This document shows positions 2,125 through 64,000 of a DNA stretch of 64,000 nt, in pieces. This stretch comes from Chitinophagales bacterium (lineage in GTDB: Bacteria > Bacteroidota > Bacteroidia > Chitinophagales > Saprospiraceae): contig JAIXKS010000039.1 in assembly GCA_026928325.1 (NCBI GenBank), forward strand, positions 66,929 to 130,928, read 5' to 3'. The notes below the pieces were generated by a model. It worked only from the letters and a program-made list of their open reading frames with translations, did not search any database and was not told where the DNA came from. Position 1 is the first letter of the stretch. Each line of letters starts with the position of its first letter. The translations under genes were made by a program, and so were the position numbers.

Positions 2125-2147
2125 GGTTAATTACTTTTTAAAATAAA

Positions 2148-2535: not shown

Positions 2536-2799
2536 CGAAGGTTTTCAGTCTATTTGTTTATTTATCAATGATTTATCTTTTAAATCCCAACAAATAGTCT
2601 TCGCTTTCCTTATTTCAGGCTGCAAAGATAAATGTTTTATTTATAACTACAAAAGTTTTTTACAAAATAAATATATATTTTTTTATAATATAAAATAGAT
2701 GGATATGTTTTTAACGGTCGTTCTTGTGGTTTAGCTGCTTTTTTATCCTGTTTTTATTGTTGGATTTGTTGCTACTATCCTCTTGAAATGATTCGGGAT

Positions 2800-3465: not shown

Positions 3466-3479
3466 GAACTCTGGTTTTG

Positions 3480-44065: not shown

Positions 44066-44459
44066 AAATAATGGTCAATTTTTGAAAGATGCAATGTCAA
44101 GGCCAAATTTAATAGTTAAAAACATATGATGATGAATTGCACTATATAATATCGGCCGAATATGGAGGCAAATATATAACAATTTTTTGTAATATGTAAC
44201 ATTATTGAAGAATTATTGATGAGGAAGGTAGAATAGGGGATGTGAGCATCACTAAAAGGTTGCGATTTTATTTTAGGAGTAATAGTAAAGTAGGAAAATG
44301 AATCTTGATTATCAAGAGGAAATAAAAATAATTAAATAAAAATCAGTTCAAATAACTTGGAAATTCAATAATTTTTGTATTTTTACAGCATAATTCGTCG
44401 ATATGAGCTATTTTGAAAATATTAGTTTGTTGATTTTCAGGATTTTACATGTTGACGCA

Positions 44460-46014
44460 GTCCGAACCATATGTCCAGCTTAGAAGGATTAAGACCATTA
44501 TAACCTGCATCTACTGTTGATGCCTTCAATGTCCGAACCATATGTCCAGCTTAGAAGGATTAAGACTAGCACTATTTGTATATATAGGCTAATCCTATTA
44601 CGGTCCGAACCATATGTCCAGCTTAGAAGGATTAAGACTCAACCGCTACTGAAAATACATCTGGATTTTTAGTAGGTCCGAACCATATGTCCAGCTTAGA
44701 AGGATTAAGACTATCAATCTTAAATGTAGATAAAAAGAAATTATCTAAGTCCGAACCATATGTCCAGCTTAGAAGGATTAAGACAGGACAAAGGTAAACC
44801 TATCATTTTCTAATTGAATGGTCCGAACCATATGTCCAGCTTAGAAGGATTAAGACCAAGAGCAGAGATTAATGTTTGAAAAACTTCGGTTGGAGTGTCC
44901 GAACCATATGTCCAGCTTAGAAGGATTAAGACCCTCATATATGTTTTGTGTGATTAGGTCGTGCAAGTCCGAACCATATGTCCAGCTTAGAAGGATTAAG
45001 ACATATCAATTTTTATTGGTTTAAATTAGATGTTAAGTCCGAACCATATGTCCAGCTTAGAAGGATTAAGACTTTCTTTTTCTGTGAACTTTAGATCTTT
45101 CGTTGTTTTTGTCCGAACCATATGTCCAGCTTAGAAGGATTAAGACCAACTCGTTTCTAAACAGTAACATATTATAATTATTTGTCCGAACCATATGTCC
45201 AGCTTAGAAGGATTAAGACTTGGTCTGCCATCGCTATTCTGATTTTATTTTTTAAGTCCGAACCATATGTCCAGCTTAGAAGGATTAAGACGTTTGTGGG
45301 TTAATTACAGGGCTTTGTCCATCATAAGTCCGAACCATATGTCCAGCTTAGAAGGATTAAGACTTCTTAGCTGCTGGTGCAGCAAAAGGGTTAATAAAGT
45401 CCGAACCATATGTCCAGCTTAGAAGGATTAAGACTCTGCACTTTTAAAGTACAGACTGTAATGATTTTTAGTCCGAACCATATGTCCAGCTTAGAAGGAT
45501 TAAGACCAGCAAAAGGGTTATTATAGTCTGCACTTTTAAAGGTCCGAACCATATGTCCAGCTTAGAAGGATTAAGACACTTGAAATTCGTTGTCAGATAA
45601 AAAGTTTAGAAAATGTCCGAACCATATGTCCAGCTTAGAAGGATTAAGACACCCGTCAATAAGGTCGTAAAAGTCACCTATACTATTGTCCGAACCATAT
45701 GTCCAGCTTAGAAGGATTAAGACATCACTCTTCTTGATCGAAAGAGCAATGAACTCAAGTCCGAACCATATGTCCAGCTTAGAAGGATTAAGACTTCTAA
45801 TGATTTTAATAATATAACAATATATTCCTTAGGTCCGAACCATATGTCCAGCTTAGAAGGATTAAGACTTCTGTTTTGGTTACTGTTATATCATCTACAG
45901 TATATGTCCGAACCATATGTCCAGCTTAGAAGGATTAAGACGTTATATCGCTGGTAGATACTCTTCACCTTCACGGAGGTCCGAACCATATGTCCAGCTT
46001 AGAAGGATTTAAAA
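44460..46014 (+). CRISPR. CRISPR array: 22 repeats of 36 bp (GTCCGAACCATATGTCCAGCTTAGAAGGATTAAGAC), 21 spacers of 34-40 bp
   Basis: Repeats counted by hand; 21 are identical and the last (45979..46014) degenerates after nt 31. AT-rich leader at 44066..44459. The repeat 3' end ATTAAGAC resembles the canonical 8-nt crRNA 5' tag, so transcription is left to right. Confidence 0.97.
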
Positions 46015-46349: not shown

Positions 46350-47093
46350 ATGCCAAAAACCAGGTACTTACATATCGTTTTTTCTGAGCCGATACAATCG
46401 TATGATATCCCTAAGTTCAGAGCCGCAGTGATTGAAAAGACCAAGAGAGAATCCACCTTGTTTCACAATCATGTGGACGACAATGTATATATTTATAGGT
46501 ATCCATTGATACAATATAAAGTGACGGATAAGAAAGCTAGCTTGATATGTTTGGCTGAAGCGACGGAAGACATTCATTATCTATTGAAGCAGCGACAATT
46601 TGATTTTCGTATCGCAGGGCGAACCGTCAATTATGAGATCGATGATGTCCGGCTTAAATATGAATTAATTCAAACGTGGGATCAGGACTTTGTTTATAAT
46701 CTCCATCATTGGATTGCGCTCAATCAGGATAATTATCGGGAGTATCAACAATTAGCCACCTTAATCGAAAGGATTGCTTTTTTAGAACACCTTCTCGAAA
46801 AACACCTGCGGATCTTTATGGAAGCCATGGGCGCAGAAGAGGTCATACCACTTCAACTAAATATTCTCGACATCAAAGGAGAAAAGTATATAGAATATAA
46901 AAATATTTTTCATCTTACCTTTTCTCTTAATTTTAGATGTAATCTTTCTATACCCAATCATGTGGGTATCGGAAAAGGCGTAAGTGTCGGGTTTGGGCTG
47001 GTGAAAAAACTAGGAGATTCAAATGATTTATTTCATCGAAAATCGAAAAGTAAGGTAAAAAGTGATGAAGCATTCCCTATTATTGATGATTAA
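46350..47093 (+). CDS. cas6: CRISPR endoribonuclease Cas6
   Basis: 247 aa; C-terminal glycine-rich loop GIGKGVSVGFGLV, position between the array and cas10. Confidence 0.8.
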   Translation: MPKTRYLHIVFSEPIQSYDIPKFRAAVIEKTKRESTLFHNHVDDNVYIYRYPLIQYKVTDKKASLICLAEATEDIHYLLKQRQFDFRIAGRTVNYEIDDVRLKYELIQTWDQDFVYNLHHWIALNQDNYREYQQLATLIERIAFLEHLLEKHLRIFMEAMGAEEVIPLQLNILDIKGEKYIEYKNIFHLTFSLNFRCNLSIPNHVGIGKGVSVGFGLVKKLGDSNDLFHRKSKSKVKSDEAFPIIDD

Positions 47094-47299
47094 AAATCAT
47101 TTTTCAATGGTAAGTATGTCATGGTTGCATTTTAAATTAAATATTAGACAATTTATGTAGAGCATTAAGATAGAAAGATTGGGTGTAGGTAAGTTTGAGG
47201 GTAAGGATTGTAAAATGGGTAAGTTTAGAATTTAAGATTAAGATTTAGAATAAATATCTAAGTTCAGTTTATGAGGTTATTTAGAAATGATGAAAGAAT

Positions 47300-49951
47300 A
47301 TGAGTATTAAAGAAAGGCAAAGAATAGTTTTAGCAGCTTTACTTCATGATATCGGAAAGTTTTGGGAACGAGCTGATTTAAAATACGATCAATCAGAAGT
47401 AATTAAAAAAGAATTTCCTAATAAGGAATACAATCATGTGGTTCCTACATACCCAAACGGAAATCCGATGTATAGTCATGCACTATGGACACAGGCATTT
47501 TTTAATAAATACGGGATAGGGGCGCATTTGGCATTGGATGATGAAAAGGACAAAAACCTTGCTAATTTGTCAGCAAAGCATCACCGACCAACAAACCATT
47601 TGGAGGCTATAATTTCTCTTGCAGACAAATGGTCATCTTCTATTGACAGACCTGACGAAGATCAAGAAGATGAAAATTTCTATAAGGAGGTTAAAGAGAA
47701 ATGGGGAGAGCAGTTTCAGAAGAAGGTGCCATTGGAAAATATTTTTGATATTCTTAATAGAGAAACCAAGGATTACGATAGTCACTGTCTAAAATTAGCA
47801 AAACTGAATGTATTGGACAGTGATATACTATTTAGTCAAAAAACTGTACCGGACAAAAATAGTAACCTGCAGGATCAATATCATGACTTGTGGAAAGGAT
47901 TTGAAAAAGAAATAACTTCATTAATAAGCAGATGTACTGATTTTGACAGTTTTTACACATCCATTAATGACATACTTAGGAATTATACGTGGTGCATGCC
48001 TTCAGCTACCAATGTCATTCCAGCCAATGTAAGTCTTTATGAGCATTTAAAGACTACCGCTGCCATTGCATTGAGCTTATATGATTATTATAAGGATTCA
48101 AATAAAGAGATAACGATTCAGGGAGATTGGCAAAGTTCTGTAAGAGATATTGACACGCTGTTGATGGTTTGTATTGATCTTTCTGGAATTCAAAAGTTTA
48201 TATATGATATAGCTAATAAAAAAGCCGCAAAAAGTTTGAAAGGTCGTTCATTTTATCTCAATTTGTTGATGCAGCATATTGTTGATAAGGTATTAAATCA
48301 TGAAAATATTCTTTGCTATCCGACTAATGTCATTTATTCAAGTGGTGGTAAAGCATATATGATTTTGCCAAATATTGAAAGAGTAAAGGACGCATTAATC
48401 GACGTAGAAGAACAGATTCAGGCTTTCCTTTTTAAAGAATACCATGGAAAACTGTTTGCTTGTTTTGGTGCGCTTGCTTTTGGATATGAAACCTTTAAAG
48501 ATAACAATGGGATTTGGGCTAATAAGATTTTTAGTAAAGAATTAACTGGAAAAGAAAAAAATATGCTTGCTGAAGACATTTTTGATCTTGGCGATTTATG
48601 GCGTTTTGCATCCGATAGGGCTTCGGCTAAGAAAGGGCAAAAGTTCAAAAGTCAGCTAATAGCTGATTATAATTCTTTTTTTAAGCCTCAATCAATTGAT
48701 TATAATTTAAATAAATGTGCTGTAACCGGTGAAAGAGGCGCATTGTTCGATATGAATAATAATAGAGATTCTTCTGACCAAATATGGGTATTAAAACAAG
48801 TTTACGATCAAGCAGAATTAGGTGAAGCCCTTAAAAAAGGCAATTTTATTATTTCATATAAGGATATTCGGGATAAACTTAGAACCGACATTCAAGTTAG
48901 TGATGAATTTTTTGAAATCAAGGATATAGAACACATCAAAAATCTTCCGGCTTCACTATATGATAAGGCGACTATAAGTACAATGAATAATACGGATGCG
49001 ACAATAGTTGCTTCAAATGTTGGAGTTAAAACCATCTTCTATGGAGGAAATAAGCAACCTGAAAATATCAATGGCGATTATAAAACCTATGAAGACTTAG
49101 CGTTAACAGACAAAGGAAATCGTACCAAATTTGGTATCCTGCGCATGGATGTGGACAATCTGGGTCAGATATTCATTCATGGATTTAATGAAAAGGTTCA
49201 GAAAAAATCATTTGCGGCATACTCGACTTTGTCGTTTATGTTAGAAGCATTTTTCAGTGGACATATCAATCATATACATCAGTCTAATCCTGAGTTTAAA
49301 GATTATGTACAGATATTATATTCTGGAGGAGATGACTTGTTTGCTGTAGGTAGGTGGGATGCTATTATCAATTTTGCATATGAGGTCAGGAAGGAATTTG
49401 CTCGATTTGTCAGTCGGGATGACATATCCATTAGCGGTGGAATAGCTATTGTAGGAGCTAAGTACCCAATCATGAAGTCTGCCGATTTAGCGGGAGATGC
49501 TGAGAAAGCCGCAAAAGATTTCAATAACAAGGCTAAGAATGCCATTAATTTTTTCGGAGAGACTGTCAGCTGGGATAAAGAGTTTGAATTTGTTAAAGGC
49601 ATGAAAGATAGTTTTATGTACTTTAAAGATGCAACAGGTACTGCATTACTTCAAAACATACAAAAATATAAACTGATTAAAGATAACGGTATTAAATTGA
49701 ATAAGAAGGATTTAAGTTACCTTTGGCATAGTGCTTATACTTTAAAAAGAATGGCGGACAGAATTGGAGATAAAGACAAACAAGCCGTAGAATTTGTGGA
49801 ACACATAGCAGATAATATACTGTACAACAAAGAATATGGTTCTGAACGATACCTAGACTTAATGGCATTAGCAGCAAGATGGGCAGAATATTTATTAAAA
49901 GATAAAAACAAAAATTTAGAAGAGTATGAAATATCCAGAGAAGAAGTTTGA
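47300..49951 (+). CDS. cas10: type III-A Cas10/Csm1
   Basis: 883 aa; N-terminal HD nuclease motif LLHDIGKF plus HHRP...SLADKWSS; Palm/cyclase motif YSGGDDLFAVG intact. Confidence 0.93.
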   Translation: MSIKERQRIVLAALLHDIGKFWERADLKYDQSEVIKKEFPNKEYNHVVPTYPNGNPMYSHALWTQAFFNKYGIGAHLALDDEKDKNLANLSAKHHRPTNHLEAIISLADKWSSSIDRPDEDQEDENFYKEVKEKWGEQFQKKVPLENIFDILNRETKDYDSHCLKLAKLNVLDSDILFSQKTVPDKNSNLQDQYHDLWKGFEKEITSLISRCTDFDSFYTSINDILRNYTWCMPSATNVIPANVSLYEHLKTTAAIALSLYDYYKDSNKEITIQGDWQSSVRDIDTLLMVCIDLSGIQKFIYDIANKKAAKSLKGRSFYLNLLMQHIVDKVLNHENILCYPTNVIYSSGGKAYMILPNIERVKDALIDVEEQIQAFLFKEYHGKLFACFGALAFGYETFKDNNGIWANKIFSKELTGKEKNMLAEDIFDLGDLWRFASDRASAKKGQKFKSQLIADYNSFFKPQSIDYNLNKCAVTGERGALFDMNNNRDSSDQIWVLKQVYDQAELGEALKKGNFIISYKDIRDKLRTDIQVSDEFFEIKDIEHIKNLPASLYDKATISTMNNTDATIVASNVGVKTIFYGGNKQPENINGDYKTYEDLALTDKGNRTKFGILRMDVDNLGQIFIHGFNEKVQKKSFAAYSTLSFMLEAFFSGHINHIHQSNPEFKDYVQILYSGGDDLFAVGRWDAIINFAYEVRKEFARFVSRDDISISGGIAIVGAKYPIMKSADLAGDAEKAAKDFNNKAKNAINFFGETVSWDKEFEFVKGMKDSFMYFKDATGTALLQNIQKYKLIKDNGIKLNKKDLSYLWHSAYTLKRMADRIGDKDKQAVEFVEHIADNILYNKEYGSERYLDLMALAARWAEYLLKDKNKNLEEYEISREEV

Positions 49952-50360
49952 CCCAAAATGGGTTAACGGCGAATCAAAAATTGACGAACAGGTTGTTGAA
50001 TGGTTAGAATCCTTTGGAGGGTTCCTTGCTAAGGATGGTGATGATAATGGAAATGATAAACCAAAAGCCTTATCATCATCTCAAATCAGAAAATTTTTTG
50101 GTGAAGTTAAAAAAATTGAAGCTGATTTTGACAGAAAAAAAGGTGAAATCGTCCTTTTAGCGCCCAAATTGGCTTATGCAGTAGGTAGAGATTACAAAGC
50201 TCAAATGAAAAGAAGTGAATCTAAAATAAAGGAATTTCATGATGAGATTATACGAGGTCTTAACGAAGTAAAAGAAGATAAAAAGCGATATTCAAACTTC
50301 GTGAATTTAGTAGAAGGTATTGTAGCATATCATAGATATAAAGGAGGAAAAGTAAATTAA
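49926..50360 (+). CDS. csm2: type III-A small subunit Csm2
   Basis: 144 aa helical protein directly after cas10 (26-nt overlap); LSSSQIRKFFGEVKKIE motif. Confidence 0.75.
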   Translation: MKYPEKKFDPKWVNGESKIDEQVVEWLESFGGFLAKDGDDNGNDKPKALSSSQIRKFFGEVKKIEADFDRKKGEIVLLAPKLAYAVGRDYKAQMKRSESKIKEFHDEIIRGLNEVKEDKKRYSNFVNLVEGIVAYHRYKGGKVN

Positions 50361-50372
50361 AAATCTAATAAT

Positions 50373-51020
50373 ATGAAGTTAATAAAAAAACAAAAATTGA
50401 CTGGGACAATAACATTGTTATCCGGTTTGCATATTGGGGACTCAAAAGAGTCAGCTGATATTGGTGGTGTTGATTCACCAATAGTAAGACGAAAAGACAG
50501 TAACCAACCCTATATTCCAGGTAGTAGTATAAAAGGAAAAATAAGATGTTTGTTAGAACAACTTGAAGGCGCAACTGAGGTAGGTAAAGGCGGCGCAGAA
50601 ATTAATCAGCTTTTTGGTATTACAGAAATAAAAAAAGATGGAGCGATCATAAGAAAGGCTGAACTTTCTAGGTTAATTGTTCGAGATTGTTATATGACAA
50701 AGGAATCAGTTAAAAAATTTAATGATTCTAATTTAGATACAGACTTACCATTTTCTGAAATAAAATTTGAAAATACCATTGATAGAGTGAAAGGTGCAGC
50801 AAGACAAGGAGGTTTGCGAAATATTGAGAGAATACCTGCCGGTGCTGAATTCGATTTTGAATTTATTTTAAATTATTATGAGGGTGATAGTGATAATTTA
50901 AGAAAATTATTAGATAAAGGTATTTCAGCATTAAATGCCGACTATCTAGGAGGAAGTGGTACTAGAGGATATGGACATATTGAGATGAAAATTGTAAATG
51001 ACGAACCCATTGAATTATGA
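50373..51020 (+). CDS. csm3: type III-A RAMP backbone subunit Csm3
   Basis: 215 aa; GLHIGDSKESADIGGVDSPIVRRKDSNQPYIPGSSIKGKIR (catalytic Asp context present), C-terminal GGSGTRGYG. Confidence 0.9.
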   Translation: MKLIKKQKLTGTITLLSGLHIGDSKESADIGGVDSPIVRRKDSNQPYIPGSSIKGKIRCLLEQLEGATEVGKGGAEINQLFGITEIKKDGAIIRKAELSRLIVRDCYMTKESVKKFNDSNLDTDLPFSEIKFENTIDRVKGAARQGGLRNIERIPAGAEFDFEFILNYYEGDSDNLRKLLDKGISALNADYLGGSGTRGYGHIEMKIVNDEPIEL

Positions 51021-51997
51021 CCTACACCGCATACTATTTACATTTTAATACACCGCTTCATATTGGCGATTATAAACCGGAAAGTTATGAAAAGTCTGAA
51101 TCGTTTTTACGGAGCGATACCATTGTAGCTGCGATTATATCAGCATGGGCTAAGTCGGGGCATGAAGATTGGATAGGTGATGGAGACTTACCTTTTACTA
51201 TAAGTAGTGCTTTCCCGTTTTTTTGTGCTAATGGTAATGAAGTGATGTTTTTTCCGCGGCTAAAGAGTAGCTTTAAAATAAAAGACCACGACTCAACTTT
51301 GTCAAAAGCAATAAAAAAGATAACCTGGCTCGATCAGTATTATTTTGAAAAAGTGATAAATAATGAAGATGTCTCTGAAAAGTTGTCTGATTTTATACGA
51401 GGAGATTTTTTGTCAAAAATAGCATTGCCGCAAGGAGGTTTTATGCAAAAACAAGTCAGCGAACGAGTGCAAATACCAAGAGAACGCAATGAAGACAATC
51501 AAAGTGAACCGTTTTATATGGAAAGGATATACTTTGAAAAGGGAGGTTTGTATTTTCTAGCTACCGGCGATGGATTAGATCGTTTAGAAAAAGCATTAAA
51601 CTTATTGCAGTATGAAGGCTTTGGCACAGATAGAAGCATCGGCAATGGTTTCTTTGAATGGAATAAGGGTGAGGTGGAGCTATCGCTACCCGATAATACT
51701 TCTTACGCTGCATCTTTGGGACTATATGTACCTGAAAGCAGGGATAAACTCACAGCCGAACTGGATGATAATACCTCCTATGACCTCATCAAACGTGGTG
51801 GCTGGATCACTACGGATGGTTATCAGTCATTTGAGAAGAACAGCATTTATATGTTTACAGAAGGATCTGTATTTAAAAAACATGAGCGTATTGACGGAAA
51901 AGGTAGTATCGACTTGTCTCCTTCTGATATTCCGAAAATACTCGATCACAAGATTTACAGAAGTGGCAAAACCATTTTTATACCTGTTAAACTTTAA
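51017..51997 (+). CDS. csm4: type III-A RAMP subunit Csm4
   Basis: 326 aa; N-terminal YLHFNTPLHIGD...LRSDTIVAAIISAW and G-rich loop GFGTDRSIGNG. Confidence 0.85.
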   Translation: MTYTAYYLHFNTPLHIGDYKPESYEKSESFLRSDTIVAAIISAWAKSGHEDWIGDGDLPFTISSAFPFFCANGNEVMFFPRLKSSFKIKDHDSTLSKAIKKITWLDQYYFEKVINNEDVSEKLSDFIRGDFLSKIALPQGGFMQKQVSERVQIPRERNEDNQSEPFYMERIYFEKGGLYFLATGDGLDRLEKALNLLQYEGFGTDRSIGNGFFEWNKGEVELSLPDNTSYAASLGLYVPESRDKLTAELDDNTSYDLIKRGGWITTDGYQSFEKNSIYMFTEGSVFKKHERIDGKGSIDLSPSDIPKILDHKIYRSGKTIFIPVKL

Positions 51998-52000
51998 GAG

Positions 52001-53452
52001 ATGACCAACATTGGCAAGACAATAATAAAAGGCAAAGTCAGGATTGTAACTCCGGTACATATCGGTGGAGCTCAAGAGAAACACCTAATGAGTGGCTTAG
52101 ATTATTTGAATAAAGATAATAAAATATTTTTCTTTGACGATAAGAAACTAATTAAGGAGTTTGGAATTGATAATTACAGCAATGCTTTGAGTGAAAACGG
52201 ATTAAGAGAACTTATCAAAAATAGACATAGAGATATTGAAGATTTTTCAAATAAACAAGCTACCATTACAGGCGTAGTTGGATTAGATATCAAAGCGAAT
52301 ATCAAAAATGCGTTAAGTGGTAAACCAATCATACCTGGAAGTTCGCTGAAAGGCTCACTGAGGTCGGTACTTTATAATCTAGCAGAAGGTGGCAGAAACA
52401 ACCGTAATGTATTCGGAAGAATAGAGGTAGATATGTTCCGTTTCTTGATAGTAGGGGATATTGAGTTTAATAGATCGACATATATAAACACAAAGATTTA
52501 TAATCTTAGGACTGCACGAGAAAATGGAGGTGGGTGGAAAAATGCATGGCAAAATAATACGACTGAACATTTTAATGAAAATGGATTCACCACGGCTCAT
52601 GAAGTCATCGAGAAAGATGATTTTTCAGATTTTGAGATAATAATTAATAATAAGGCGTTTGAAAAAGCGTTGGTAGAAGGGAAAGTTATGGCGCCTGCAA
52701 ATGTTAAAAATATTTTTATCGGCCAAGCAGACTTATTTGAAATTATCAAAGAATACACAAAGAATTATCTTAAAGCAGAAATAGCGTTCTTCGAAAAGTA
52801 TAAAGGACAACATTCAGACGTTATTATTGCAGAGCTAAATAGACTTTTGGCACTTAATGAAAACTCGCCATTGCTCAGGCTTGGCCTCGGTTCTGGCTTT
52901 CATGCTATGACGGGAGATACGCTTCATGATTCGCATTTGATAGACAGTATTCATATGATTGGGAATCGTTCAAGAGGAACATTAAACAGATATGACTCTG
53001 CAAAATCTCGCAAATTAGCATTTGAAAAAATTGGGGAGGAATTCAAGTTTTATCCAATGGGATTTATTCAGCTCTTTTCAGATGAAGATTGGATTAAGGA
53101 TGCAGATAAATTGATAAAGGAGCAAGAAGCATCGAAAATACAAGAGCAAGCTAAAATAGCAGAAGAAAAGGCACGTCAAGAAAAGGAACAAGCGTTAAAA
53201 GAAGAAGCAATGAAGCCTAAAATGGTGGAATTATCGTTTTTAGGCAACAGACCGAAATGGGTAGATGCAAAAGTTGTAGCTCAAAGAGGTACTCAACTAA
53301 TATTTAAACCTTTTATTTTAGGTTTTGAAGATAAAGAATTTGATTTGAGGTATGGGATTGGAATGGATGAAGGTACGATCATTCAAGTAGAATGCACGAA
53401 ACAAGGAAATAATATTAGATTTCAAGGGTCTCCACGTAAAAAACAGGGATAG
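52001..53452 (+). CDS. csm5: type III-A RAMP subunit Csm5 with ~120-aa C-terminal extension
   Basis: 483 aa; VRIVTPVHIGG, IIPGSSLKGSLRS, LGLGSGF RAMP motifs up to ~aa 358, then a Lys/Glu-rich helix and a ~75-aa extra domain. Confidence 0.75.
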   Translation: MTNIGKTIIKGKVRIVTPVHIGGAQEKHLMSGLDYLNKDNKIFFFDDKKLIKEFGIDNYSNALSENGLRELIKNRHRDIEDFSNKQATITGVVGLDIKANIKNALSGKPIIPGSSLKGSLRSVLYNLAEGGRNNRNVFGRIEVDMFRFLIVGDIEFNRSTYINTKIYNLRTARENGGGWKNAWQNNTTEHFNENGFTTAHEVIEKDDFSDFEIIINNKAFEKALVEGKVMAPANVKNIFIGQADLFEIIKEYTKNYLKAEIAFFEKYKGQHSDVIIAELNRLLALNENSPLLRLGLGSGFHAMTGDTLHDSHLIDSIHMIGNRSRGTLNRYDSAKSRKLAFEKIGEEFKFYPMGFIQLFSDEDWIKDADKLIKEQEASKIQEQAKIAEEKARQEKEQALKEEAMKPKMVELSFLGNRPKWVDAKVVAQRGTQLIFKPFILGFEDKEFDLRYGIGMDEGTIIQVECTKQGNNIRFQGSPRKKQG

Positions 53453-53499
53453 GGAACTATATTTGTTTTTCATGCGTTTTACATTCAAAATTCATGCTT

Positions 53500-53751: not shown

Positions 53752-54143
53752 ATATCGTTTTAGATACAAGTGCTGCTGTGCGTGTTGTTTTAGATCGAGA
53801 TATTCATCTTATTAAAATCTTACAGCAAGCTGAACACATATTTGTGCCTCATTTGTTTTTTGCAGAAGTAGGTAATGTGTTTCTAAAATATTATCAGTTT
53901 CAGAATATGCATCCAGAAGCTTGTAAATTGTATATGATGCAATGTCGGCAGCTCATTACTGATGTCGTAGATGAATACACTTTTAATGAAGAAGTGTTTG
54001 ATATAGCGACTAAAAATCAGTTGAGTTTTTATGATGCAATATACTTGGCTATGGCAAAAAAGTTGGCAGCTAATCTTCTTACCGAAGATAAAAAATTGAA
54101 CGATGTTGCATCAAAACTTGGTTTAGTAGCCAAGGAGGTTTAA
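53748..54143 (+). CDS. vapC: PIN-domain toxin VapC
   Basis: 131 aa; IVLDTSA (first acidic residue), FAEVGNV, SFYDAIYLAMA, LLTEDKKL. Confidence 0.85.
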   Translation: MNIVLDTSAAVRVVLDRDIHLIKILQQAEHIFVPHLFFAEVGNVFLKYYQFQNMHPEACKLYMMQCRQLITDVVDEYTFNEEVFDIATKNQLSFYDAIYLAMAKKLAANLLTEDKKLNDVASKLGLVAKEV

Positions 54144-54190: not shown

Positions 54191-55018
54191 ATGAAAATTT
54201 TATTAACAAATCTCGGTAATCGAAACATCACTTTTCAAGGCAAAACGTATAATGAATGGGATATAAGCAATCAAAATCACAAGCATTTTGTCAATTTTGC
54301 TAATTGGACTAAAAAGCTCAATGATGATTTTGAGAAAGAAAAGGCTTTTTTAGATATTAATATCATCAATCCTATTATCAATCAAAAGGAAAATTATGAT
54401 TATATCGTACTCTATTACACCGACCAAAGTGATTATGAGACAAGAACAGATCAAGATACAATTCATGAAGCTGCTATCATTAAAAGAATACTGATTGACC
54501 GATATGAGTATATAGAAGATAGAATCATAACTATCGCTGTAAAATCAAAAGTCATAGATAATGGAGGATTACTTAAATTTTATAGATCTGAATTGACACG
54601 CATTAAAAAGAAGTATGATGCTCCATTTATCACTATTTGTGATGCTGGAGGAACAGCTCAACAAAAAATGGCATTAAAAGTCATCGCAGAATATGTATTT
54701 GATGCGAGCCAATATGAAATCTTGTATGTCGAAAAGAACTCATTGATTACGGATGTCAATGTGAATGAATATAGAAAAGTGATAAATTCAGAGCAGGCTA
54801 TTAGTTTGATAAAACATGGTGAATTTGGAGCTGCCGCAGAGCTTTTGGATTATAAGGAAATACTTAATTTTCAAAAAGCCCAGAAATATGATTGGAAAGG
54901 GAAGGTTATGGCTCATGTTATTTATAGGTTTAATCAAAATAAGAATGAGGCAAAACATATTTTAGGAAATTTGCAAGTTTCTAACGAACTATTGAAAAAT
55001 TATATGGCGGATTCAAGT
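54191..55018 (+). pseudogene. csm6: csm6-type CARF-HEPN effector, 5' fragment (CARF domain), truncated by IS insertion
   Basis: Rossmann-like MKILLTNLGNRN start and CARF loop ICDAGGTAQQKMAL. The frame runs 11 codons into the IS and stops. Confidence 0.75.
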
Positions 55019-55993
55019 CATAAATGCAACTTTTCCGTCATTATTAATTAAATGCAAATGTACTTGATTTGGAGATAAAAATCCAAATCTTTTTCTTGGT
55101 CTATTGTTTAGTTTATCTTCTACATATTCGATATCATCATTTGTGATTAAATTAAAGTCGTAATTCTTTGGGAAATACTGTCTTACCAACCCATTAAAGT
55201 TTTCATTTGCTCCTCTTTCCCAACTATGATAAGGTCTTGCGAAGAAATAATCTATCTCCAATTCTGTTGCGATTTCTTTGTGTAAAGCAAATTCTTTTCC
55301 ATTATCGGAGGTAATGGTTTTCAAAAAGGACTTCCATTCTGTAAGGATTTCAATTGCCTTTTGCTTGGTCTCTTCCGATGACTTTGACTCTAATAATGCC
55401 ATTTTTGCTTTTCCTGTTACCCTGTCATTTGCCGTCAATATTGCCCTTTTGTGATTTTTCCCAATTACTAAATCTATTTCCACATCTCCTATTCTGACTT
55501 TTTCTTCTACTATTTTAGGTCGATTTTCAATACTTACTTTATCAGGAATTTGCCCCCGTTTATCCTTTGAAGCTCCTCTTTTACGGTATCTTTTGCCCTT
55601 TGTCCGCAAGTGTGTGTAAAGATTGCCGCCCTGTCTTTTGTCTGACCAAATATGTTGGTAAATTCGCTCTATTGACACGCAATCGTCTCCTTGAAGTTTA
55701 GAAAATCCTACGACTTGCTCCGGACTGTAATCTTGTCGGAGTAATTCTTCTACATTTTCCTGAATTTCAGCGGTAAATCTGATTTTCTTCTTTTTTGTTT
55801 TATGCCTGTTAGCACATTTTCTTTCCGCCAATTCGGCTTTGTACTTACCACTTCTTTGGTCACAATTCCTTTTCAGTTCTCTACTCACAACTGACTTATC
55901 CCGATTAATTCTTTTAGCTATTTCACTTTGTGAAAAACCTTCTTCTTTTAATACTTGAATTGTGTATCTTTGTGCTACGGTTAAATGTCCCAT
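55013..55993 (-). CDS. IS30-family DDE transposase
   Basis: 326 aa; N-terminal HTH (GFSQSEIAKRINRDKSVVSRELKRN), DDE region ...DLVIG...TSDNGKEF...ERGANENFNGLVRQYFPK. The stop codon lies in the left TCAAGT repeat. Confidence 0.9.
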   Translation of the reverse strand: MGHLTVAQRYTIQVLKEEGFSQSEIAKRINRDKSVVSRELKRNCDQRSGKYKAELAERKCANRHKTKKKKIRFTAEIQENVEELLRQDYSPEQVVGFSKLQGDDCVSIERIYQHIWSDKRQGGNLYTHLRTKGKRYRKRGASKDKRGQIPDKVSIENRPKIVEEKVRIGDVEIDLVIGKNHKRAILTANDRVTGKAKMALLESKSSEETKQKAIEILTEWKSFLKTITSDNGKEFALHKEIATELEIDYFFARPYHSWERGANENFNGLVRQYFPKNYDFNLITNDDIEYVEDKLNNRPRKRFGFLSPNQVHLHLINNDGKVAFMT

Positions 55994-56138
55994 TTATTGC
56001 GAATTTTGGACGAGGAGCAAAATGAGGAAATTTTACCATTCAGAAAAGGAGAGGAGAGTTTTTCTCTTCTCTTTTCTGAAAAAAATTATCCCTTATTTCT
56101 TTCCTACCAAAAGTTGCATTTATTAGTTGAACTCAAGT
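55013..56138 (-). mobile_element. IS30-family insertion sequence (coordinates include both flanking TCAAGT direct repeats)
   Basis: Inverted repeats ATAAATGCAACTTTT (55020..55034) and AAAAGTTGCATTTAT (56109..56123); TCAAGT at 55013..55018 and 56133..56138; single transposase ORF. Confidence 0.85.
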
Positions 56139-56750
56139 ATCCATGAAAATGCTTTTTCAAATAATACAGAATTGGAGGAGATGTTTGGAAGTGATTGGAT
56201 TGATATCACAGAAAAACTCTATAAAAGTATATTTTATTACAATCGTAAAAATTTTAGTCTATCGATACTTTCATTTTCTCAATTTTATGAATATTTCTTA
56301 GAGAAAATTATCCCAGTGATTTTACCTATCGAAATTTATGGAAAGACTAATGCCCAAAATGCTGAACAATATTTTAACTTTAATGGCCTTTTTGAAGAAT
56401 ATTATGCTGATTATTTACGGAAAAGACCCGAATTTAAGCCGAAAATAGAGAGTGTCAATTCTGGAATAATGGTTGTTAAAGCTTTGACAAAAGGTTCTGC
56501 TAAAGACTTTACAAAGATGATTTCTCCGTATATTGATTTTACAGATGATTGTATTTACGGGAAAGCTTTACTTAATGTAACTAGAAACCAAATTGCACAT
56601 CAAGGTAAGTTTATTTCAGAAAGTGATATTTCAAAGAAGCTGAGTTATTATCCGAATTTATTAAGTCGTACAGCTGAGATTTTTCAGTTGACTAGGGCTG
56701 ATTTGTTTAGCGATCTTGGAGATTTGTTAGAAAACAATTTAAGGAATTGA
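56133..56750 (+). pseudogene. csm6: csm6-type CARF-HEPN effector, 3' fragment (HEPN domain)
   Basis: HEPN R-x4-H motif in LLNVTRNQIAHQG. Reading frame is continuous with 54191..55018 once 55019..56138 is removed. Confidence 0.75.
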
Positions 56751-56753
56751 CTT

Positions 56754-58520
56754 ATGGCTGTTCTCCTTGGCATAACAGATTCCAAAGACATTACATTAGT
56801 TCAAGCAATATTGCTTTTAAAAAGTAAAGGAATAGTAATTGATAATGTTAAATATATTAGGACTGGAGGACTAGAAATTGATCGTAAGGCTGAAATGTTT
56901 TACAATAACTTTAAAATCAATTTTGTAGTTTCTTCACTTCCTCAAGGAGGCAAATTACAAAAAGAGGATGATTACCTTGTACAAGAAGATGAGTTGTTTA
57001 AATGGTATTTAGAATCAACTCATGGCTTCGATAAAATATATGTTTTTATTGGTGGAGGGCATAAGCTGCATTCATTGGCCTTGCAAAAATGTGCATTTTT
57101 ATTTGGAGCTGAAGAGGTTTTCCACATGTTTATAGATGTTCCTAGAGAACATGAGCCTAAATCAATTTCCGATATCGAAATTGCTATTAAAAACAATCAG
57201 ATTCTTTATGCGAACATTGGTAAGCATTTGGCTTGGCCGGCTATAAAAAAATTGGTTCAACAAAATATCACAGCACCTAATCTAATAAGGGAAGTTATTG
57301 GAATAATCGGCAGTCGTGCAGTGTCACAAGTTAATGAATTGCCATTTGAATCTTTACAGTTGTTACCAGCTATGGCAATGCAATGGCTACAAGGTAGGTT
57401 AGTGGAGCGTGATTATGATTTTATTAAAATGCTACCTAAAGTAGAGTTGCATTGTCATCTTGGTGGGTTTGCTTCTGACGGAGATGCTCTAGATATCGTT
57501 AGAGCAAGCTATGAAGGGAATATTCCGTTACGAGAAAAGCATGTTATTTCGTATCCAGAGAATTGGCCTCTTCCTAAAAAGCCCATTGAATTAGACAAAT
57601 ATATGAATTTAGGTGATAACACTGGATCTTATATTCTACATAATAAAGGATGCCTTGAAAAACAAATTGAACTTTTATACAGTCATTTTTTAGAACAAAA
57701 CATTGGCTATGCAGAAGTTAGATGTTCTCCTTATAATTATGCTAGTGATAAATATTCCGGATTTGAAATTGTACAAATCATTATTGATAAGTTTAATGAG
57801 CTCATGGACCTTGCTAAAGAACATGAATTTTGGTGTCATGTCAATTTATTAATTATTGCTACCCGGACAGACCTAAAAAATACGCAAAAAATTCAAAATC
57901 ATTTAGAGTTGGCTACTGTAGCAGAATCTAAAAGTAGTACTAAGGGATTGTGTAAAATTGTTGGCGTTGATTTAGCAGGCTTTGAGCATCCTTCGACAAG
58001 GGCATCCTACTATACCAATCTTTTTGATCCAATCCATAGAAAGGGAATTGCTTTAACGATCCATGCAGGTGAGAATGATGAATCAGAGGCTATTTGGGAT
58101 GCCGTATTTAGATTGAATACGAGAAGGATTGGTCATGGACTACACCTTTATCAAGATGCTAATCTTTTAAAGTCAGTCATAAATCGAGGAATCGGCGTTG
58201 AAATGTGTCCCTACGCCAATTATCAAATCAAAGGATACGCTCCTATGGAAAATCAAAGCAAAGTTTATCCTTTACTTGATTATTTGAATCAAGGAGCTCA
58301 AGTTACTGTAAATACTGATAATATAGGTATAAGTTCAGCATCTCTCACAGATAATATAATCCTTTTGTCGAAATTGAACCCAGATATTACTAGAATTCAG
58401 ATATTGCAATTGGTTAGAAATGGAATCAACCAAGCATTTATTGATGTCAGTTTGCGTAATAAATTTATCGAAATTTATAATGAACGAATTTTTAAGTTGA
58501 TTCTAGAATTTACGCTATAA
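56754..58520 (+). CDS. cad1: CARF domain-adenosine deaminase fusion (Cad1-type CRISPR ancillary effector)
   Basis: 588 aa. The N-terminal ~215 aa are Rossmann-like with the loop VFIGGGHKLHSLAL. The C-terminal deaminase has VELHCHLGG, GVDLAGFE, LTIHAGE, RIGHGLHL, EMCPYANY, VNTDN. Confidence 0.85.
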   Translation: MAVLLGITDSKDITLVQAILLLKSKGIVIDNVKYIRTGGLEIDRKAEMFYNNFKINFVVSSLPQGGKLQKEDDYLVQEDELFKWYLESTHGFDKIYVFIGGGHKLHSLALQKCAFLFGAEEVFHMFIDVPREHEPKSISDIEIAIKNNQILYANIGKHLAWPAIKKLVQQNITAPNLIREVIGIIGSRAVSQVNELPFESLQLLPAMAMQWLQGRLVERDYDFIKMLPKVELHCHLGGFASDGDALDIVRASYEGNIPLREKHVISYPENWPLPKKPIELDKYMNLGDNTGSYILHNKGCLEKQIELLYSHFLEQNIGYAEVRCSPYNYASDKYSGFEIVQIIIDKFNELMDLAKEHEFWCHVNLLIIATRTDLKNTQKIQNHLELATVAESKSSTKGLCKIVGVDLAGFEHPSTRASYYTNLFDPIHRKGIALTIHAGENDESEAIWDAVFRLNTRRIGHGLHLYQDANLLKSVINRGIGVEMCPYANYQIKGYAPMENQSKVYPLLDYLNQGAQVTVNTDNIGISSASLTDNIILLSKLNPDITRIQILQLVRNGINQAFIDVSLRNKFIEIYNERIFKLILEFTL

Positions 58521-58540: not shown

Positions 58541-59548
58541 TTAATCACTATTATAATATCCCGTCATCCTAGCCGTTTTTTCAGCCATGATGTTTACCAA
58601 TTCGGCAGGTTCTAATACGATAAGGTCGGGGCCGTAGCTCAATAGTCGGTGTATAATTTCATAAGTGATGTAAATGTCTAACGAGAAGCGCGACTTTTGT
58701 TCTGTTTGTTCGACCAATCTCTGTGAGGGATGTATCGGTTTAGAACGAAGATACTTGCTGAGTAAGGGTATCACCTCAAATTCAATATGCTGCACTTGGG
58801 CGTCTTGAATCCTGGTTACGCCATACATGTGTTTAAACCAATTGGCGTGGTTGAAATCTGGAGGTATAAAATAATCGGTTAAAGAAGGCTGAATATCTGC
58901 CATCCGATCTAATGCCAGATTGATGATGACTTCCTTACTATGTAGATATCCGTATAGATACCACCGATTGTTATATTCATGGATAAAGGCTGGTGATAGG
59001 GTATGCGTATCGGGCTCGCCGTCAAATGGTTCGTACTTGATCCGGAGTGTTTGTCGGTTTTTGATATGCTTATACACGGTGTCCAACCATCTTTGCCCAG
59101 CTTCATTCAGGCTATGTTCTAGGTAAATGGATGGCTCTTGATTGATATCGATGCTGAGATTAAGTTTGTCTTCAAGGACAGATAAGGTGTGATGGATATC
59201 TAACAATTTTTCATTTTTAGTCAGTTGCTTGAGCATCAATAAGGCATCTTTGACTTTATCAGCATTGATATTATTTAAGGGAACTTTAAAAATACTAAAC
59301 TTTTTATTGGTGTAGTAATATCCCTTATGTTTGTTATAGGCAATCGGTGCTTCGTACCCTAAGATTCCGGAACGCATTCTTTGGATATCATAGGCAATGG
59401 TTCGCTTCGATGGAGCTATCAGATTTTTATTCCAATCTGCTGCAGCAAGAGCGCAAGCTTCTGATAAGTCTTGCCAATGATTAACGGAGTTCTTTCTTAA
59501 TCGTTGGTCAATAATTTGGTATCTCAATTGTGCATTGATAGAACTCAT
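58541..59548 (-). CDS. WYL-domain transcriptional regulator (wHTH-WYL-WCX)
   Basis: 335 aa; N-terminal wHTH, WYL core LRIKYEPF...HEYNNRWYLYGY, C-terminal ...LIVLEPAELV. Confidence 0.85.
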   Translation of the reverse strand: MSSINAQLRYQIIDQRLRKNSVNHWQDLSEACALAAADWNKNLIAPSKRTIAYDIQRMRSGILGYEAPIAYNKHKGYYYTNKKFSIFKVPLNNINADKVKDALLMLKQLTKNEKLLDIHHTLSVLEDKLNLSIDINQEPSIYLEHSLNEAGQRWLDTVYKHIKNRQTLRIKYEPFDGEPDTHTLSPAFIHEYNNRWYLYGYLHSKEVIINLALDRMADIQPSLTDYFIPPDFNHANWFKHMYGVTRIQDAQVQHIEFEVIPLLSKYLRSKPIHPSQRLVEQTEQKSRFSLDIYITYEIIHRLLSYGPDLIVLEPAELVNIMAEKTARMTGYYNSD

Positions 59549-60834: not shown

Positions 60835-61848
60835 ATGAGAATATTTATCAATACTTACGGAACTTCTTTGAAGATGCAAGATGGTTTGCTTTCAATTAAA
60901 TACGAAGACAAAATCAATAAAGTTCCCATAGGAAAAGTTAAAACCATTTATCTTACAAAAAGCGTTCATTTATCTACGGATGTACTTTATGCCTGCCTCG
61001 AACAAGGCATAGATTTAATGATTACGGAGCGGAGTGGTGCTCCGGTGGGAAGATTATGGAATAATAGGTTCGGATCTATATCTACTATCCGAAAAAACCA
61101 ATTGGACTTTGCAGCAAGTGGTCATGTTACTTCGTGGGTTATCGACCAACTTTCAGAAAAAATTGAAAACCAAATTGATTTACTTTTTTGCTTATTGACA
61201 TTGGATGAACCCGATGAAACAGAGATTAATCGAGTAGTCGAAAAAATGAGATCAATTATTATTAGGATGTCCGAATCTAAAGAGGATCATATCAGCGAAG
61301 CGGCAGCAAGATTACGAGCTTTGGAAGGCCAAGCCGCTAAACTCTATTTTTCGTGTATCAATAGACATTTGCCATTTAAATATCAATTTTCAGGTAGAAG
61401 CAGACATCCCGCCTTGGATATGGTCAACTCGATGTTAAATTATGTATATGGTATATTATACGGACATATAGAATCCGCATTGATAAAAGCTGGGTTAGAT
61501 CCTTTTATTGGCCTCTTTCATCGGGATGAATACAATAGACCGGTTCTTACTTATGATGTAATCGAACCATTTAGACCTTGGGCTGATTGGACAGTTTTTC
61601 ATTTGTGCACTAACGAGGTACTAGATGATGTTCATTTTCAGATAGAAAATGGACAATATTGGCTCCAAGGGGATGCTAAAAGGATATTGATTCAGCATTT
61701 TTCGGACTTTTTTGATGAAGTAATCGATTATAAGGGAAATCGGTTTTCGCGGATGATTCATTTGGATAAGGCAGCTCAACAATTAGCTAGTTTTATTCAA
61801 AATAATGCGCCAGGCCCTGAATCAGGATTTATAACGTCACACAAATAA
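60835..61848 (+). CDS. cas1: CRISPR integrase Cas1
   Basis: 337 aa; LEGQAAKLYF, NSMLNYVYGILY, GLFHRDEYNRPVLTYDVIEPFRP motifs. Confidence 0.9.
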   Translation: MRIFINTYGTSLKMQDGLLSIKYEDKINKVPIGKVKTIYLTKSVHLSTDVLYACLEQGIDLMITERSGAPVGRLWNNRFGSISTIRKNQLDFAASGHVTSWVIDQLSEKIENQIDLLFCLLTLDEPDETEINRVVEKMRSIIIRMSESKEDHISEAAARLRALEGQAAKLYFSCINRHLPFKYQFSGRSRHPALDMVNSMLNYVYGILYGHIESALIKAGLDPFIGLFHRDEYNRPVLTYDVIEPFRPWADWTVFHLCTNEVLDDVHFQIENGQYWLQGDAKRILIQHFSDFFDEVIDYKGNRFSRMIHLDKAAQQLASFIQNNAPGPESGFITSHK

Positions 61849-61859
61849 TTATAAGATAG

Positions 61860-62837
61860 ATGCCAAATATACTTTTATCATACGGCACCAATTGTAAGGA
61901 TAACAAATCTTCGCTTTCTATCATGGATTTAGTGTCCTTGTATGAATTGATTATTGCACCGGACGAACACAATTTAGTTACCACAACACAAAACTTGAGG
62001 TCTGTGCTGAAATATTCTCAAGAGCGATATCGTTACATGAAAACATCACTTCCTTTTTTCTCTTGTTCGCATTTTGATCCGCCATTGAGAGGCATTCAAA
62101 ATTTTGTTAGAGCTGAAGGACTTGTCATTGATTTAGATATGAAAGCACCTTTAGACCAGGAGTTGATCCGTAAGTTTAAAGAGGATGAAAGGATAGCTTT
62201 GGGTTATATTTCTCCAAGTAATATGGGCATAAAATTAGTATTTGTTTTAGATGAGCCAGTTAGAGATGCACAAGTATATAGAGCGTTATATCTAAAATTT
62301 TCTAGTGATTTTGCAATGCAATATCACTTGGCTGACTGCTTGGATCAAAAAAACTGTGACGTTAGCCGTATTAGTTTTATATGCCATGACTCGCAAGCAT
62401 GGTTCAATTCTGATGCTATCCCATTGACAATCAATCATTGGATATCGGAAGATTCCATAAGTGTTCCAATGGATACTCCAGATGAGATGGTGGCTGAAAA
62501 ACAAAATATTCCTGAAACTGCCTACAAAAAGATTTTAGAATTATTAGATACACGTCCTAAAACTGTTAAAGCGGTTGTACCTCTTATGCCGGAAATATCG
62601 CAGATCATGGATATTATATCTGAAGAATTGGACATCTATGAAATCCGTGTCGATCATGTCGAAAGCATTCAGTATGGAGCAAAACTAAGGTTGGCGAAGG
62701 ATGTACAAAAGGCGGAAATCAATGTGTATTATGGAAAGCAAGGTTATCGGGTAGTAACAAGTCCACGAAAAGGAACTGACCATCAGCTCAATGAGGTAGC
62801 CAGATTTGTCTTACAATCCTTATTGGATAAATATTAA
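61860..62837 (+). CDS. archaeo-eukaryotic primase superfamily Prim-Pol (BT4734/VirE-N-like), CRISPR-associated (CAPP-type)
   Basis: 325 aa between cas1 and cas2; AEP motif I LVIDLDMK (DxD), motif II region SPSNMGIKLVFVL, motif III region NCDVSRISFICHD. Confidence 0.7.
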   Translation: MPNILLSYGTNCKDNKSSLSIMDLVSLYELIIAPDEHNLVTTTQNLRSVLKYSQERYRYMKTSLPFFSCSHFDPPLRGIQNFVRAEGLVIDLDMKAPLDQELIRKFKEDERIALGYISPSNMGIKLVFVLDEPVRDAQVYRALYLKFSSDFAMQYHLADCLDQKNCDVSRISFICHDSQAWFNSDAIPLTINHWISEDSISVPMDTPDEMVAEKQNIPETAYKKILELLDTRPKTVKAVVPLMPEISQIMDIISEELDIYEIRVDHVESIQYGAKLRLAKDVQKAEINVYYGKQGYRVVTSPRKGTDHQLNEVARFVLQSLLDKY

Positions 62838-62852
62838 AATTGAATAAAAATT

Positions 62853-63296
62853 ATGAGCAAATACCCTTCATTTAATACCATTCGAGATGTAGAAGTCAAT
62901 GATGAAAAGTTAGCTTCGTTGGCAGAATTAAATATAGACCAAAAAATCAATACCATCATGGGCTGGCTTGCCCGTCAAAGCCGCATCAAATCTAACCTTA
63001 TGTTGTATATGATTATGTATGATATAGAAAACAATAAAATCCGTACTCATATCGCCAAATATCTGATAAAAAAGGGTTGTCTTAGAATCCAAAAATCAGT
63101 TTATCTTGCAAAAAGTAGTCCTGTAATTATGAAAGAAATAACGGAAACACTCAAAGAAATTAATGATATTTATGAAAATCAAGATAGTATTTTTGTACTG
63201 CCTGTTCCGGAAGAAAAGTTCAATAATATTACGGTGATTGGCCAAAATGTTGAATTTGAAATTGTAACCCAACCCAAGATTGTTTTATTTTTTTAA
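62853..63296 (+). CDS. cas2: CRISPR-associated Cas2 with N-terminal extension
   Basis: Cas2 core LYMIMYDIENNKIRTHIAKYLIKKGCLRIQKSVYL starts near aa 50 of 147. An internal Met (MGWLAR) could be the true start. Confidence 0.8.
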   Translation: MSKYPSFNTIRDVEVNDEKLASLAELNIDQKINTIMGWLARQSRIKSNLMLYMIMYDIENNKIRTHIAKYLIKKGCLRIQKSVYLAKSSPVIMKEITETLKEINDIYENQDSIFVLPVPEEKFNNITVIGQNVEFEIVTQPKIVLFF

Positions 63297-63362
63297 ACAA
63301 TGATTGGCTTGGGTTTGGTTTAGGAAATGTTTTAATAAAATAATTAAAGATATTAAATAGAA

Positions 63363-64000
63363 ATGGATGTTAAAGGTATAATTCAAATATTTTTTGTTTT
63401 GTTCGTGCTTGGCATGTTAAAGTATTGTGATACGTCGTCAGATACACCAGACTATTATAGCGGTTTTGATTATGATTCAAAAATTTGGCATGAAGGTTAT
63501 AGCATTGAAAAGGAAAGGAAAATCAATCGCATTTTGGAACATGCAAAGGAATTTTCTGATAACTTGAATGCGGCTAAAAAGCTCCTAATGTATATGATAC
63601 CATTTCCTATGCTTAACGATTCGGAAACCTTTATGATTGATATAGCAGATTTTCCTGGTATATATGGGTATGCACTGCCATCACAAAAAGATATTGTGGA
63701 AGGAAGTGAATGGTATAGATGTCTTTATGAAAACGACAACAATTTAGATCCTGAGTATCTGCCCTATGTTATTTATAATGATTATAACCAGGATAGTATT
63801 ATGGATGTAGTTTGTGTATTAAAACCGACAGTCGATACGTATGGTTCCTTAGTCTGCTTGTATGTAAGTACCGGTACAAATCAATATAAAGTATATGTAA
63901 TAGACGAAAGGGATGAATTTTGGGTCAATAGATCTTTTTTGTTTCCGTTAGGCAAAGGAGATGAACTATGCCTTTATGAAGGAGATGATCCTAGAGAAAT
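63363..64000 (+). CDS. hypothetical lipoprotein, N-terminal part (runs off window end)
   Basis: Edge ORF absent from the track; hand translation MDVKGIIQIFFVLFVLGMLKYCDTSSD... stays open to base 64000. Confidence 0.45.
   Translation, partial: MDVKGIIQIFFVLFVLGMLKYCDTSSDTPDYYSGFDYDSKIWHEGYSIEKERKINRILEHAKEFSDNLNAAKKLLMYMIPFPMLNDSETFMIDIADFPGIYGYALPSQKDIVEGSEWYRCLYENDNNLDPEYLPYVIYNDYNQDSIMDVVCVLKPTVDTYGSLVCLYVSTGTNQYKVYVIDERDEFWVNRSFLFPLGKGDELCLYEGDDPRE

Follow-up and report, generated by a model that had tools for sequence, protein, structure and literature searches.

The 64,000-nucleotide stretch of DNA analysed here (referred to as the window) originates from an uncultured Chitinophagales bacterium of the phylum Bacteroidota (contig JAIXKS010000039.1) and harbors a CRISPR adaptation module, in which an open reading frame (ORF) of 325 amino acids is located between cas1 and cas2. 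The three genes lie on the same strand and, as read directly from the sequence, are separated by gaps of 11 nucleotides (61849-61859) and 15 nucleotides (62838-62852), which confirms the gene order and the coordinates given in a preliminary description of the locus. The genes of the module and the domains of the middle protein are the following:

60835..61848, forward strand: cas1, encoding the integrase subunit of the adaptation module, 337 amino acids (PF01867, E 4.8e-66; TIGR00287, 204 bits)
61860..62837, forward strand: gene assigned to CRISPR-associated primase-polymerase type B (CAPP_B), 325 amino acids (NF040562 PrimPol_Db, 242.5 bits)
61860..62459, forward strand: archaeo-eukaryotic primase (AEP, Prim-Pol) catalytic domain, approximately residues 1-200 (PF08800, alignment and Foldseek)
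62505..62834, forward strand: apparent TBP-like domain, residues 216-325, consisting of a helix, a four-stranded sheet and a helix
62853..63296, forward strand: cas2, 147 amino acids (PF09827, E 3.2e-15, residues 50-125; TIGR01573)

CRISPR-associated primase-polymerases (CAPPs) were defined as two classes, namely CAPP_A, which is related to the Marinitoga enzymes and comprises fusions to TPR, reverse transcriptase (RT) or helicase domains, and CAPP_B, which is related to DbCAPP, has a simple architecture with a VirE-N type catalytic domain and is largely confined to type III loci of Bacteroidetes (Zabrady et al., 2021; PMC8211822). The 325-amino-acid ORF almost certainly encodes a member of the CAPP_B class. 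With the NCBIfam equivalog model NF040562 ('PrimPol_Db, CRISPR-associated primase-polymerase type B'), the protein reaches 242.5 bits, which exceeds the curated cutoff of 200, and the match is full length, with residues 6-321 corresponding to model positions 1-334 of 335. The Pfam family PF08800 (BT4734-like_N/VirE-N AEP domain) covers residues 62-182 with 32.1 bits (cutoff 22.4), and apart from a weak match to a TBP-TOTE domain nothing else was detected in the Pfam and NCBIfam scans, i.e., no fused helicase, RT or TPR. All features of the class that can be read from a sequence are thus present in the window protein. The identical protein is deposited at NCBI as MCZ2101505.1, a 'hypothetical protein' of a Chitinophagales metagenome-assembled genome (MAG), and 49 close homologues were collected, all of which match over the full length, while an exhaustive profile search at E <= 1e-30 yielded representatives of at least 292 clusters formed at 50% identity, with nearly all of the best 150 being full length. 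The finding is therefore real, but not new, as the family has already been described and has a curated naming model. The link to published CAPPs drawn in the preliminary description is borne out, the protein belonging to a defined class whose prototype is found in the same cas1-CAPP-cas2 order (PMC8211822), and hence the novelty is much lower than had been estimated there.

The catalytic part of the protein carries three motifs that had been read as those of archaeo-eukaryotic primases, namely LVIDLDMK (starting at residue 88, with D91 and D93), GIKLVFVL (residue 123) and DVSRISFICHD (residue 167). All three are present, and D91, D93, S118, P119, G123, K125, D167, R170 and D177 are invariant among 36 homologues with identities of 37-64%, so that the motifs represent catalytic-type positions rather than chance strings. 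These residues are distributed over three segments of the AEP domain, which are DxD (D91, D93), SPSxxGxK (S118-K125) and DVSRxxFxxxD (D167, R170, D177); by analogy, the SPSxxGxK segment probably corresponds to AEP motif II, with a lysine replacing the usual histidine. An AlphaFold2 model based on the alignment of the 36 homologues reached a pLDDT of 90.3, and its best match in the PDB, as determined by Foldseek, was the AEP domain of the cyanophage S-2L PrimPol (6zp9_A, E 6.5e-5, probability 1.0), with further matches to the poxvirus D5/E5 primase, the polymerase domain of LigD, human PrimPol and NrS-1. Among predicted viral structures (BFVD), the best matches were VirE-N primase-helicases of tailed phages (E ~1e-13), including one from a Cellulophaga (Bacteroidota) phage. 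When the family profile was compared with the sequences of PDB chains, nothing meaningful was obtained, the top match being Cas12i2 with an E of 0.04, which was treated as spurious, and the fold relationship therefore only became apparent with Foldseek. A structure search had been suggested in the preliminary description as a check on its Prim-Pol assignment, and the AEP fold it returned agrees with NF040562 and PF08800.

In the model, a low-confidence linker (residues 202-215) joins the AEP domain to the C-terminal domain, which belongs to the half of the protein that had initially been called unrecognised and to a region that has been termed 'a diverse smaller C-terminus' in CAPP_B proteins (PMC8211822). 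Modelled alone, this domain reached a pLDDT of 91.3, and on the basis of the model the C-terminal ~110 residues of CAPP_B look like a TBP-like domain of a nucleic-acid-binding type, so that the region does not appear to be unrecognised any longer. PF22721 (TBP-TOTE, from TOTE conflict systems) scores 17.2 bits in the window protein, which is below the cutoff, but is matched by 13 of 25 homologues, with a best E of 2.8e-7 and 27.2 bits in the relative P0086. The best structural matches of the domain are the N-terminal domains of RnlA (probability 0.99-1.0, TM 0.5, rmsd 3.0-3.7 Å over 81 columns), and Y222, I225, L229, G273, K275, E286, Y290, G292, G295 and L310 are invariant among the 36 homologues. 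In proteins of the RNase LS family, a fused TBP-like domain has been described that is similar to the domain by which RNase HIII binds RNA:DNA hybrids (Anantharaman et al., 2013; PMC3710099). By analogy, the natural inference for the domain in CAPP_B would be an accessory role in nucleic-acid binding.

The arrangement of the module is conserved in related genomes. Thirteen loci of close relatives were compared (L001-L013), seven of which stem from species-representative genomes and were found with a single peptide pattern, while six are metagenomic; those with names belong to Saprospiraceae, Chitinophagales or Aureispira, and a wider context was obtained from contigs encoding homologues. The order cas1-CAPP-cas2 is collinear in 12 of the 13 loci (L001-L006 and L008-L013), and in the remaining one, L007, the contig ends inside the CAPP gene, after cas1. 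Between the window and these loci, the identity is 59-78% for Cas1, which is encoded directly upstream of the CAPP, 61-79% for Cas2 and 42-60% for the CAPP itself. The association also extends to more distant loci. In L014, the genes for a RecD-like helicase, Cas1, CAPP and Cas2 follow each other, and the CAPP (P0132; 3177-5495) is a protein of 772 amino acids with a C-terminal TPR fusion, whereas in L015 the CAPP gene is inverted and lies between cas2 and cas1 (2362-3417). The locus of P0102, a protein of 337 amino acids that is ~30% identical to the window CAPP and has an LDLD sequence aligning with its DxD pair, has the order WYL, RecD-like helicase, Cas1, CAPP, Cas2, and thereby matches the published DbCAPP operon. 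P0102 may be DbCAPP itself, as the length and the operon fit, although its DxD residues are shifted by one position relative to the published numbering. Across the examined loci, cas1 and cas2 are the only universal neighbours of the CAPP gene, which answers the question of co-occurrence raised in the preliminary description in favor of an association with the adaptation genes. In one metagenomic relative, L008, a gene for a prokaryotic Argonaute (pAgo) with a Piwi domain (1979-3904) is found beside WYL-cas1-CAPP_B-cas2, which echoes the published association of MpCAPP with Argonaute, although the latter belongs to the other CAPP class.

The Cas2 proteins linked to CAPP_B have a feature of their own. 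In the window, an N-terminal extension of ~49 amino acids (62853-63002) precedes the Cas2 core, and all CAPP_B-linked Cas2 proteins examined (window, L001, L004, L008, L010, L012, L014 and L015) are 143-165 amino acids long, with N-terminal extensions of 45-70 amino acids. The extension has no Pfam match and its conservation is weak between subclades, and it is a candidate docking element. Pfam also gave a weak match (21.4 bits, cutoff 27) between the window Cas2 and Mu_Gam-Sipho_Gp157-TOTE, another domain of TOTE systems, but this match falls within the Cas2 core and was therefore taken as chance.

The prototype of CAPP_B is DbCAPP (WP_101486965.1) from a Dysgonamonadaceae bacterium, which is encoded between cas1 and cas2 and was characterized as a DNA-dependent DNA primase and polymerase that initiates primers with GTP and performs strand displacement, with the D86A/D88A mutant being inactive (Zabrady et al., 2021; PMC8211822). 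DbCAPP binds DbCas1 in yeast two-hybrid and pull-down experiments, and DbCas1 in turn binds a RecD-like helicase (PMC8211822). The window protein resembles DbCAPP in its full-length match to NF040562 above the cutoff, in size (325 versus 337 amino acids), in its position between cas1 and cas2 of a type III locus in Bacteroidota, and in the combination of a VirE-N/BT4734-type AEP domain with a small C-terminal domain, with D91/D93 of the DxD motif corresponding to D86/D88 of DbCAPP. It differs in that the window and its close relatives have no gene for a RecD-like helicase upstream of cas1, where a WYL gene is found instead, together with a protease gene in the window; moreover, the window comes from a mesophile-type MAG, whereas the source of DbCAPP is a hot-spring thermophile according to the paper, and the array of the window is not adjacent to cas2.

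Two other groups of AEP enzymes are related by context or by fold. CAPP_A proteins (MpCAPP and MsCAPP of Marinitoga, and the CAPP-RT and CAPP-helicase types) are likewise Prim-Pols in operons with cas1 and cas2 of type III systems, and a role in adaptation was proposed for them as well; however, they were placed in a homology group that does not intersect with CAPP_B (PMC8211822), and they have a PriCT-like domain at the C-terminus as well as fusions to TPR, RT or helicase domains. The assignment of the window protein to CAPP_A was rejected, as no such domains were found in the Pfam and NCBIfam scans and only the type B model matches. In its fold, the AEP domain is closest to the VirE/BT4734 primase-helicases of phages and mobile elements (BFVD E 1e-13, PF08800), but these proteins comprise 600-850 amino acids, carry a P-loop helicase at the C-terminus and serve to replicate such elements. 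The window protein was not considered as one of them, since its C-terminal 110 residues form a predicted TBP-like helix-sheet-helix arrangement instead of a helicase and its gene is fixed between cas1 and cas2.

The module is part of a type III-A locus of a member of the Bacteroidota, which is the setting where CAPP_B is expected. The surrounding features of the locus are the following:

44420..44459, forward strand: leader end, adjoining the first repeat, with the motif TTGAnnnTCA ... GACGC(A/T)
44460..46014, forward strand: CRISPR array with 22 repeats of 36 nucleotides (GTCCGAACCATATGTCCAGCTTAGAAGGATTAAGAC), the last of which is degenerate, and 21 spacers of 34-40 nucleotides
46350..53452, forward strand: type III-A effector genes cas6 (Cas6b-like; Cas6b_N and Cas6b_C), cas10/csm1, csm2, csm3, csm4 and csm5 (TIGR02578, 560 bits; TIGR01870, TIGR02582, TIGR01903, TIGR01899)
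58541..59548, reverse strand: WYL/WCX-domain protein (PF13280, PF25583), a conserved neighbour that is divergent from the adaptation operon

In five of the related loci (L001, L004, L006, L008 and L010), cas2 is immediately followed by an array whose repeats belong to the family found in the window (...GTCCAGnTnnGAAGGATTAAGAC). No array was found in the ~700 nucleotides downstream of cas2 in the window (63297-64000), and the sole array is the one at 44460-46014. An alignment of six leader-repeat junctions revealed that the motif in the last ~40 nucleotides of the leader is common to the window array and to the cas2-adjacent arrays of the related loci. Since both the repeat family and the leader-end motif match, the distant array is a plausible integration target of the module, and its different position suggests a rearrangement of the locus. 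The ends of 179 unique spacers from six arrays (window at 44496-45978, L001, L004, L006, L008 and L010) were analysed in 48 tests. C occupies the first position in 27% of the spacers compared to a background of 18.6%, and G the last position in 25% compared to 16.4%, with raw p values of 0.003-0.007 that are not significant after correction. On the strand with the sense of the CRISPR RNA, the spacers contain 35.8% T and 29.2% A, as well as 18.6% C and 16.4% G, a skew compatible with spacers that are complementary to purine-rich coding strands.

The WYL/WCX protein is likely a regulator, and a divergent upstream homologue of 40-57% identity is found in 9 of the 13 related loci, with an equivalent arrangement at the P0102 locus. 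A scan for promoters and terminators at 59.5-63.7 kb gave counts at or below the shuffled expectation, with a sigma-70 consensus that is inappropriate for Bacteroidota. Between the WYL gene and cas1, the window encodes a serine protease of the trypsin-like type (PF13365; 59839-60759), whose N-terminus is hydrophobic. A homologue with 28% identity occupies the equivalent place in L004 (3942-4709), and this protease may be a recurrent accessory gene of the module.

Every CRISPR system needs DNA synthesis to complete the integration of a spacer. On this background, the window CAPP_B is best understood as an adaptation-linked DNA primase-polymerase in a three-gene operon with cas1 and cas2, for which we estimate a probability of roughly 0.8. 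CAPP_B would be docked on Cas1-Cas2, probably aided by the TBP-like domain acting as a clamp on nucleic acids and by the extended N-terminus of Cas2, and would supply the DNA synthesis that adaptation requires. It could convert single-stranded fragments of invader DNA into duplex prespacers, or fill the single-stranded repeat gaps that arise after integration at the leader-proximal repeat, or do both. The suggestion in the preliminary description that the enzyme may make or fill in prespacer DNA coincides with a published proposal, in which the formation of prespacers from single-stranded DNA fragments and their generation by strand displacement were considered, as well as a role after integration, either in filling gaps or in resolving the intermediate (PMC8211822).

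Several observations weigh against this assignment. The literature searched holds no in vivo demonstration of any CAPP in spacer acquisition, and a review from 2023 still calls the role of CAPPs in acquisition 'likely'. The biochemistry of the window protein would be extrapolated over a distance of only ~30% identity to P0102, the protein of the DbCAPP-type operon. The CAPP is less conserved than Cas1 and Cas2, and is not under equal constraint, and the Saprospiraceae/Chitinophagales subclade to which the window belongs is devoid of the RecD-like helicase of DbCAPP-type operons, the partner of DbCas1. The array of the window lies 15 kb upstream of the module, next to cas6 and cas10, instead of being adjacent to it. 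Finally, an enrichment of G at the 5' end, as predicted if the end of a GTP-initiated primer were retained, is absent in the 179 spacers, which is a weak argument, because trimming of the prespacer ends would erase such a mark.

Other explanations were considered as well. The preliminary description had reasoned from the lack of an RT at an RNA-targeting system, and the Prim-Pol could accordingly be imagined as a stand-in for an RT that uses RNA of the invader, or RNA:DNA hybrids, as a template and thereby provides the RNA-sensing type III machinery with DNA prespacers. Indeed, no RT is fused to Cas1 or located beside it, with the window Cas1 matching only PF01867 and no RT being present among the ORFs scanned at 38-64 kb, and the TBP-like appearance of the C-terminal domain would fit as well, given that RNase HIII binds RNA:DNA hybrids through a domain of this type (PMC3710099). 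The skew of the spacers towards T over A and C over G is compatible with spacers antisense to purine-rich mRNAs, but is explained equally well by selection for functional spacers. Type III-A systems without an RT, on the other hand, ordinarily acquire spacers from DNA. The polymerase activity of both DbCAPP and MpCAPP, which were described as DNA-dependent primases, is much lower on RNA than on DNA templates (PMC8211822), and a protein that works poorly on RNA is no substitute for an RT, so that the earlier reasoning is weak and we regard this explanation as improbable. RT-Cas1 and other CRISPR-associated RTs are comparable in that the Cas1-Cas2 integrase of a type III system has likewise recruited a polymerase, yet this polymerase has an RT fold instead of an AEP fold, and RT-Cas1 allows spacers to be captured from RNA, while DNA is the preferred template of those CAPPs that were tested; without an RT beside Cas1 in the scanned 38-64 kb, the module of the window was not classified as an RT-Cas1 adaptation module.

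It is likewise unlikely that the CAPP acts outside adaptation, for example by providing DNA guides or substrates for a nuclease or an Argonaute, in DNA repair, or in abortive-infection signalling linked to type III interference. The Piwi-domain pAgo gene beside WYL-cas1-CAPP-cas2 in L008 and the strong binding of MpCAPP to MpAgo (PMC8211822) point in this direction, but neither the window nor most of the related loci encode a pAgo, and the universal neighbours are cas1 and cas2 alone. Least probable by far, and already disfavoured, is the idea that the gene is a remnant or passenger, i.e., a VirE-type primase of a mobile element that was inserted by chance between cas1 and cas2 and has no CRISPR function. 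While the phage VirE-N primase-helicases are the closest structural relatives (E 1e-13) and CAPP homologues occur in mobile elements and phages (PMC8211822), the gene order is kept across loci whose Cas1 is only 59-78% identical, and even in the DbCAPP-like clade with 30% identity. Moreover, the gaps of 11 and 15 nucleotides are tight, a helicase domain is missing, no integrase or other mobile-element genes flank the site, the catalytic residues are invariant, and DbCAPP binds Cas1.

The relation of the TBP-like domain to the RnlA and TOTE domains, and through them to the domain of RNase HIII, also leads to a more daring idea. By means of this domain, CAPP_B could be brought to RNA:DNA hybrids or R-loops at transcribed invader DNA and thereby couple type III target recognition or transcription to a local synthesis of prespacers, as a type III analogue of primed adaptation, with the extended N-terminus of Cas2 serving as the docking site; this is a long shot. 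The locus itself is one more natural example of cas1-CAPP_B-cas2, from a Saprospiraceae/Chitinophagales subclade without the RecD partner, and as the source is an uncultured MAG, it makes the question of CAPP function no more testable than the published model proteins do. Beyond the published description, the analysis adds the seemingly TBP-like C-terminal domain, the N-terminal extension of Cas2, the subclade without a RecD-like helicase, and a distant array that keeps the leader-end motif. The C-terminal domain and the family-specific Cas2 extension could guide experiments, but neither alters what is known about the family.

The region between the effector genes and the adaptation module contains several further genes. 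A pair of an RHH antitoxin and a PIN toxin (53494-54143) lies between csm5 and the accessory genes, and a PIN-domain pair with equal gene sizes (85 and 131 amino acids) is present in L012 (2788-3437). An element of the IS30 family (~55012-56131), which is bounded by terminal inverted repeats of 23 nucleotides with 91% complementarity and encodes its transposase on the reverse strand (55013-55993), splits a csm6-like gene (54191-56750). The upstream half of this gene (54191 to ~55011) has no family match, and the downstream half (56127-56750) weakly matches the C-terminal/HEPN region of Csm6; owing to the split, one cyclic-oligoadenylate effector of the locus is probably inactivated. The adjacent gene (56754-58520) encodes a protein of 588 amino acids, in which an N-terminal region of ~220 amino acids is followed towards the C-terminus by an adenosine deaminase domain (PF00962, E 4e-40, residues 228-573). 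We take this protein to resemble Cad1, an accessory effector of type III systems that combines CARF with adenosine deaminase, with the CARF part being putative.

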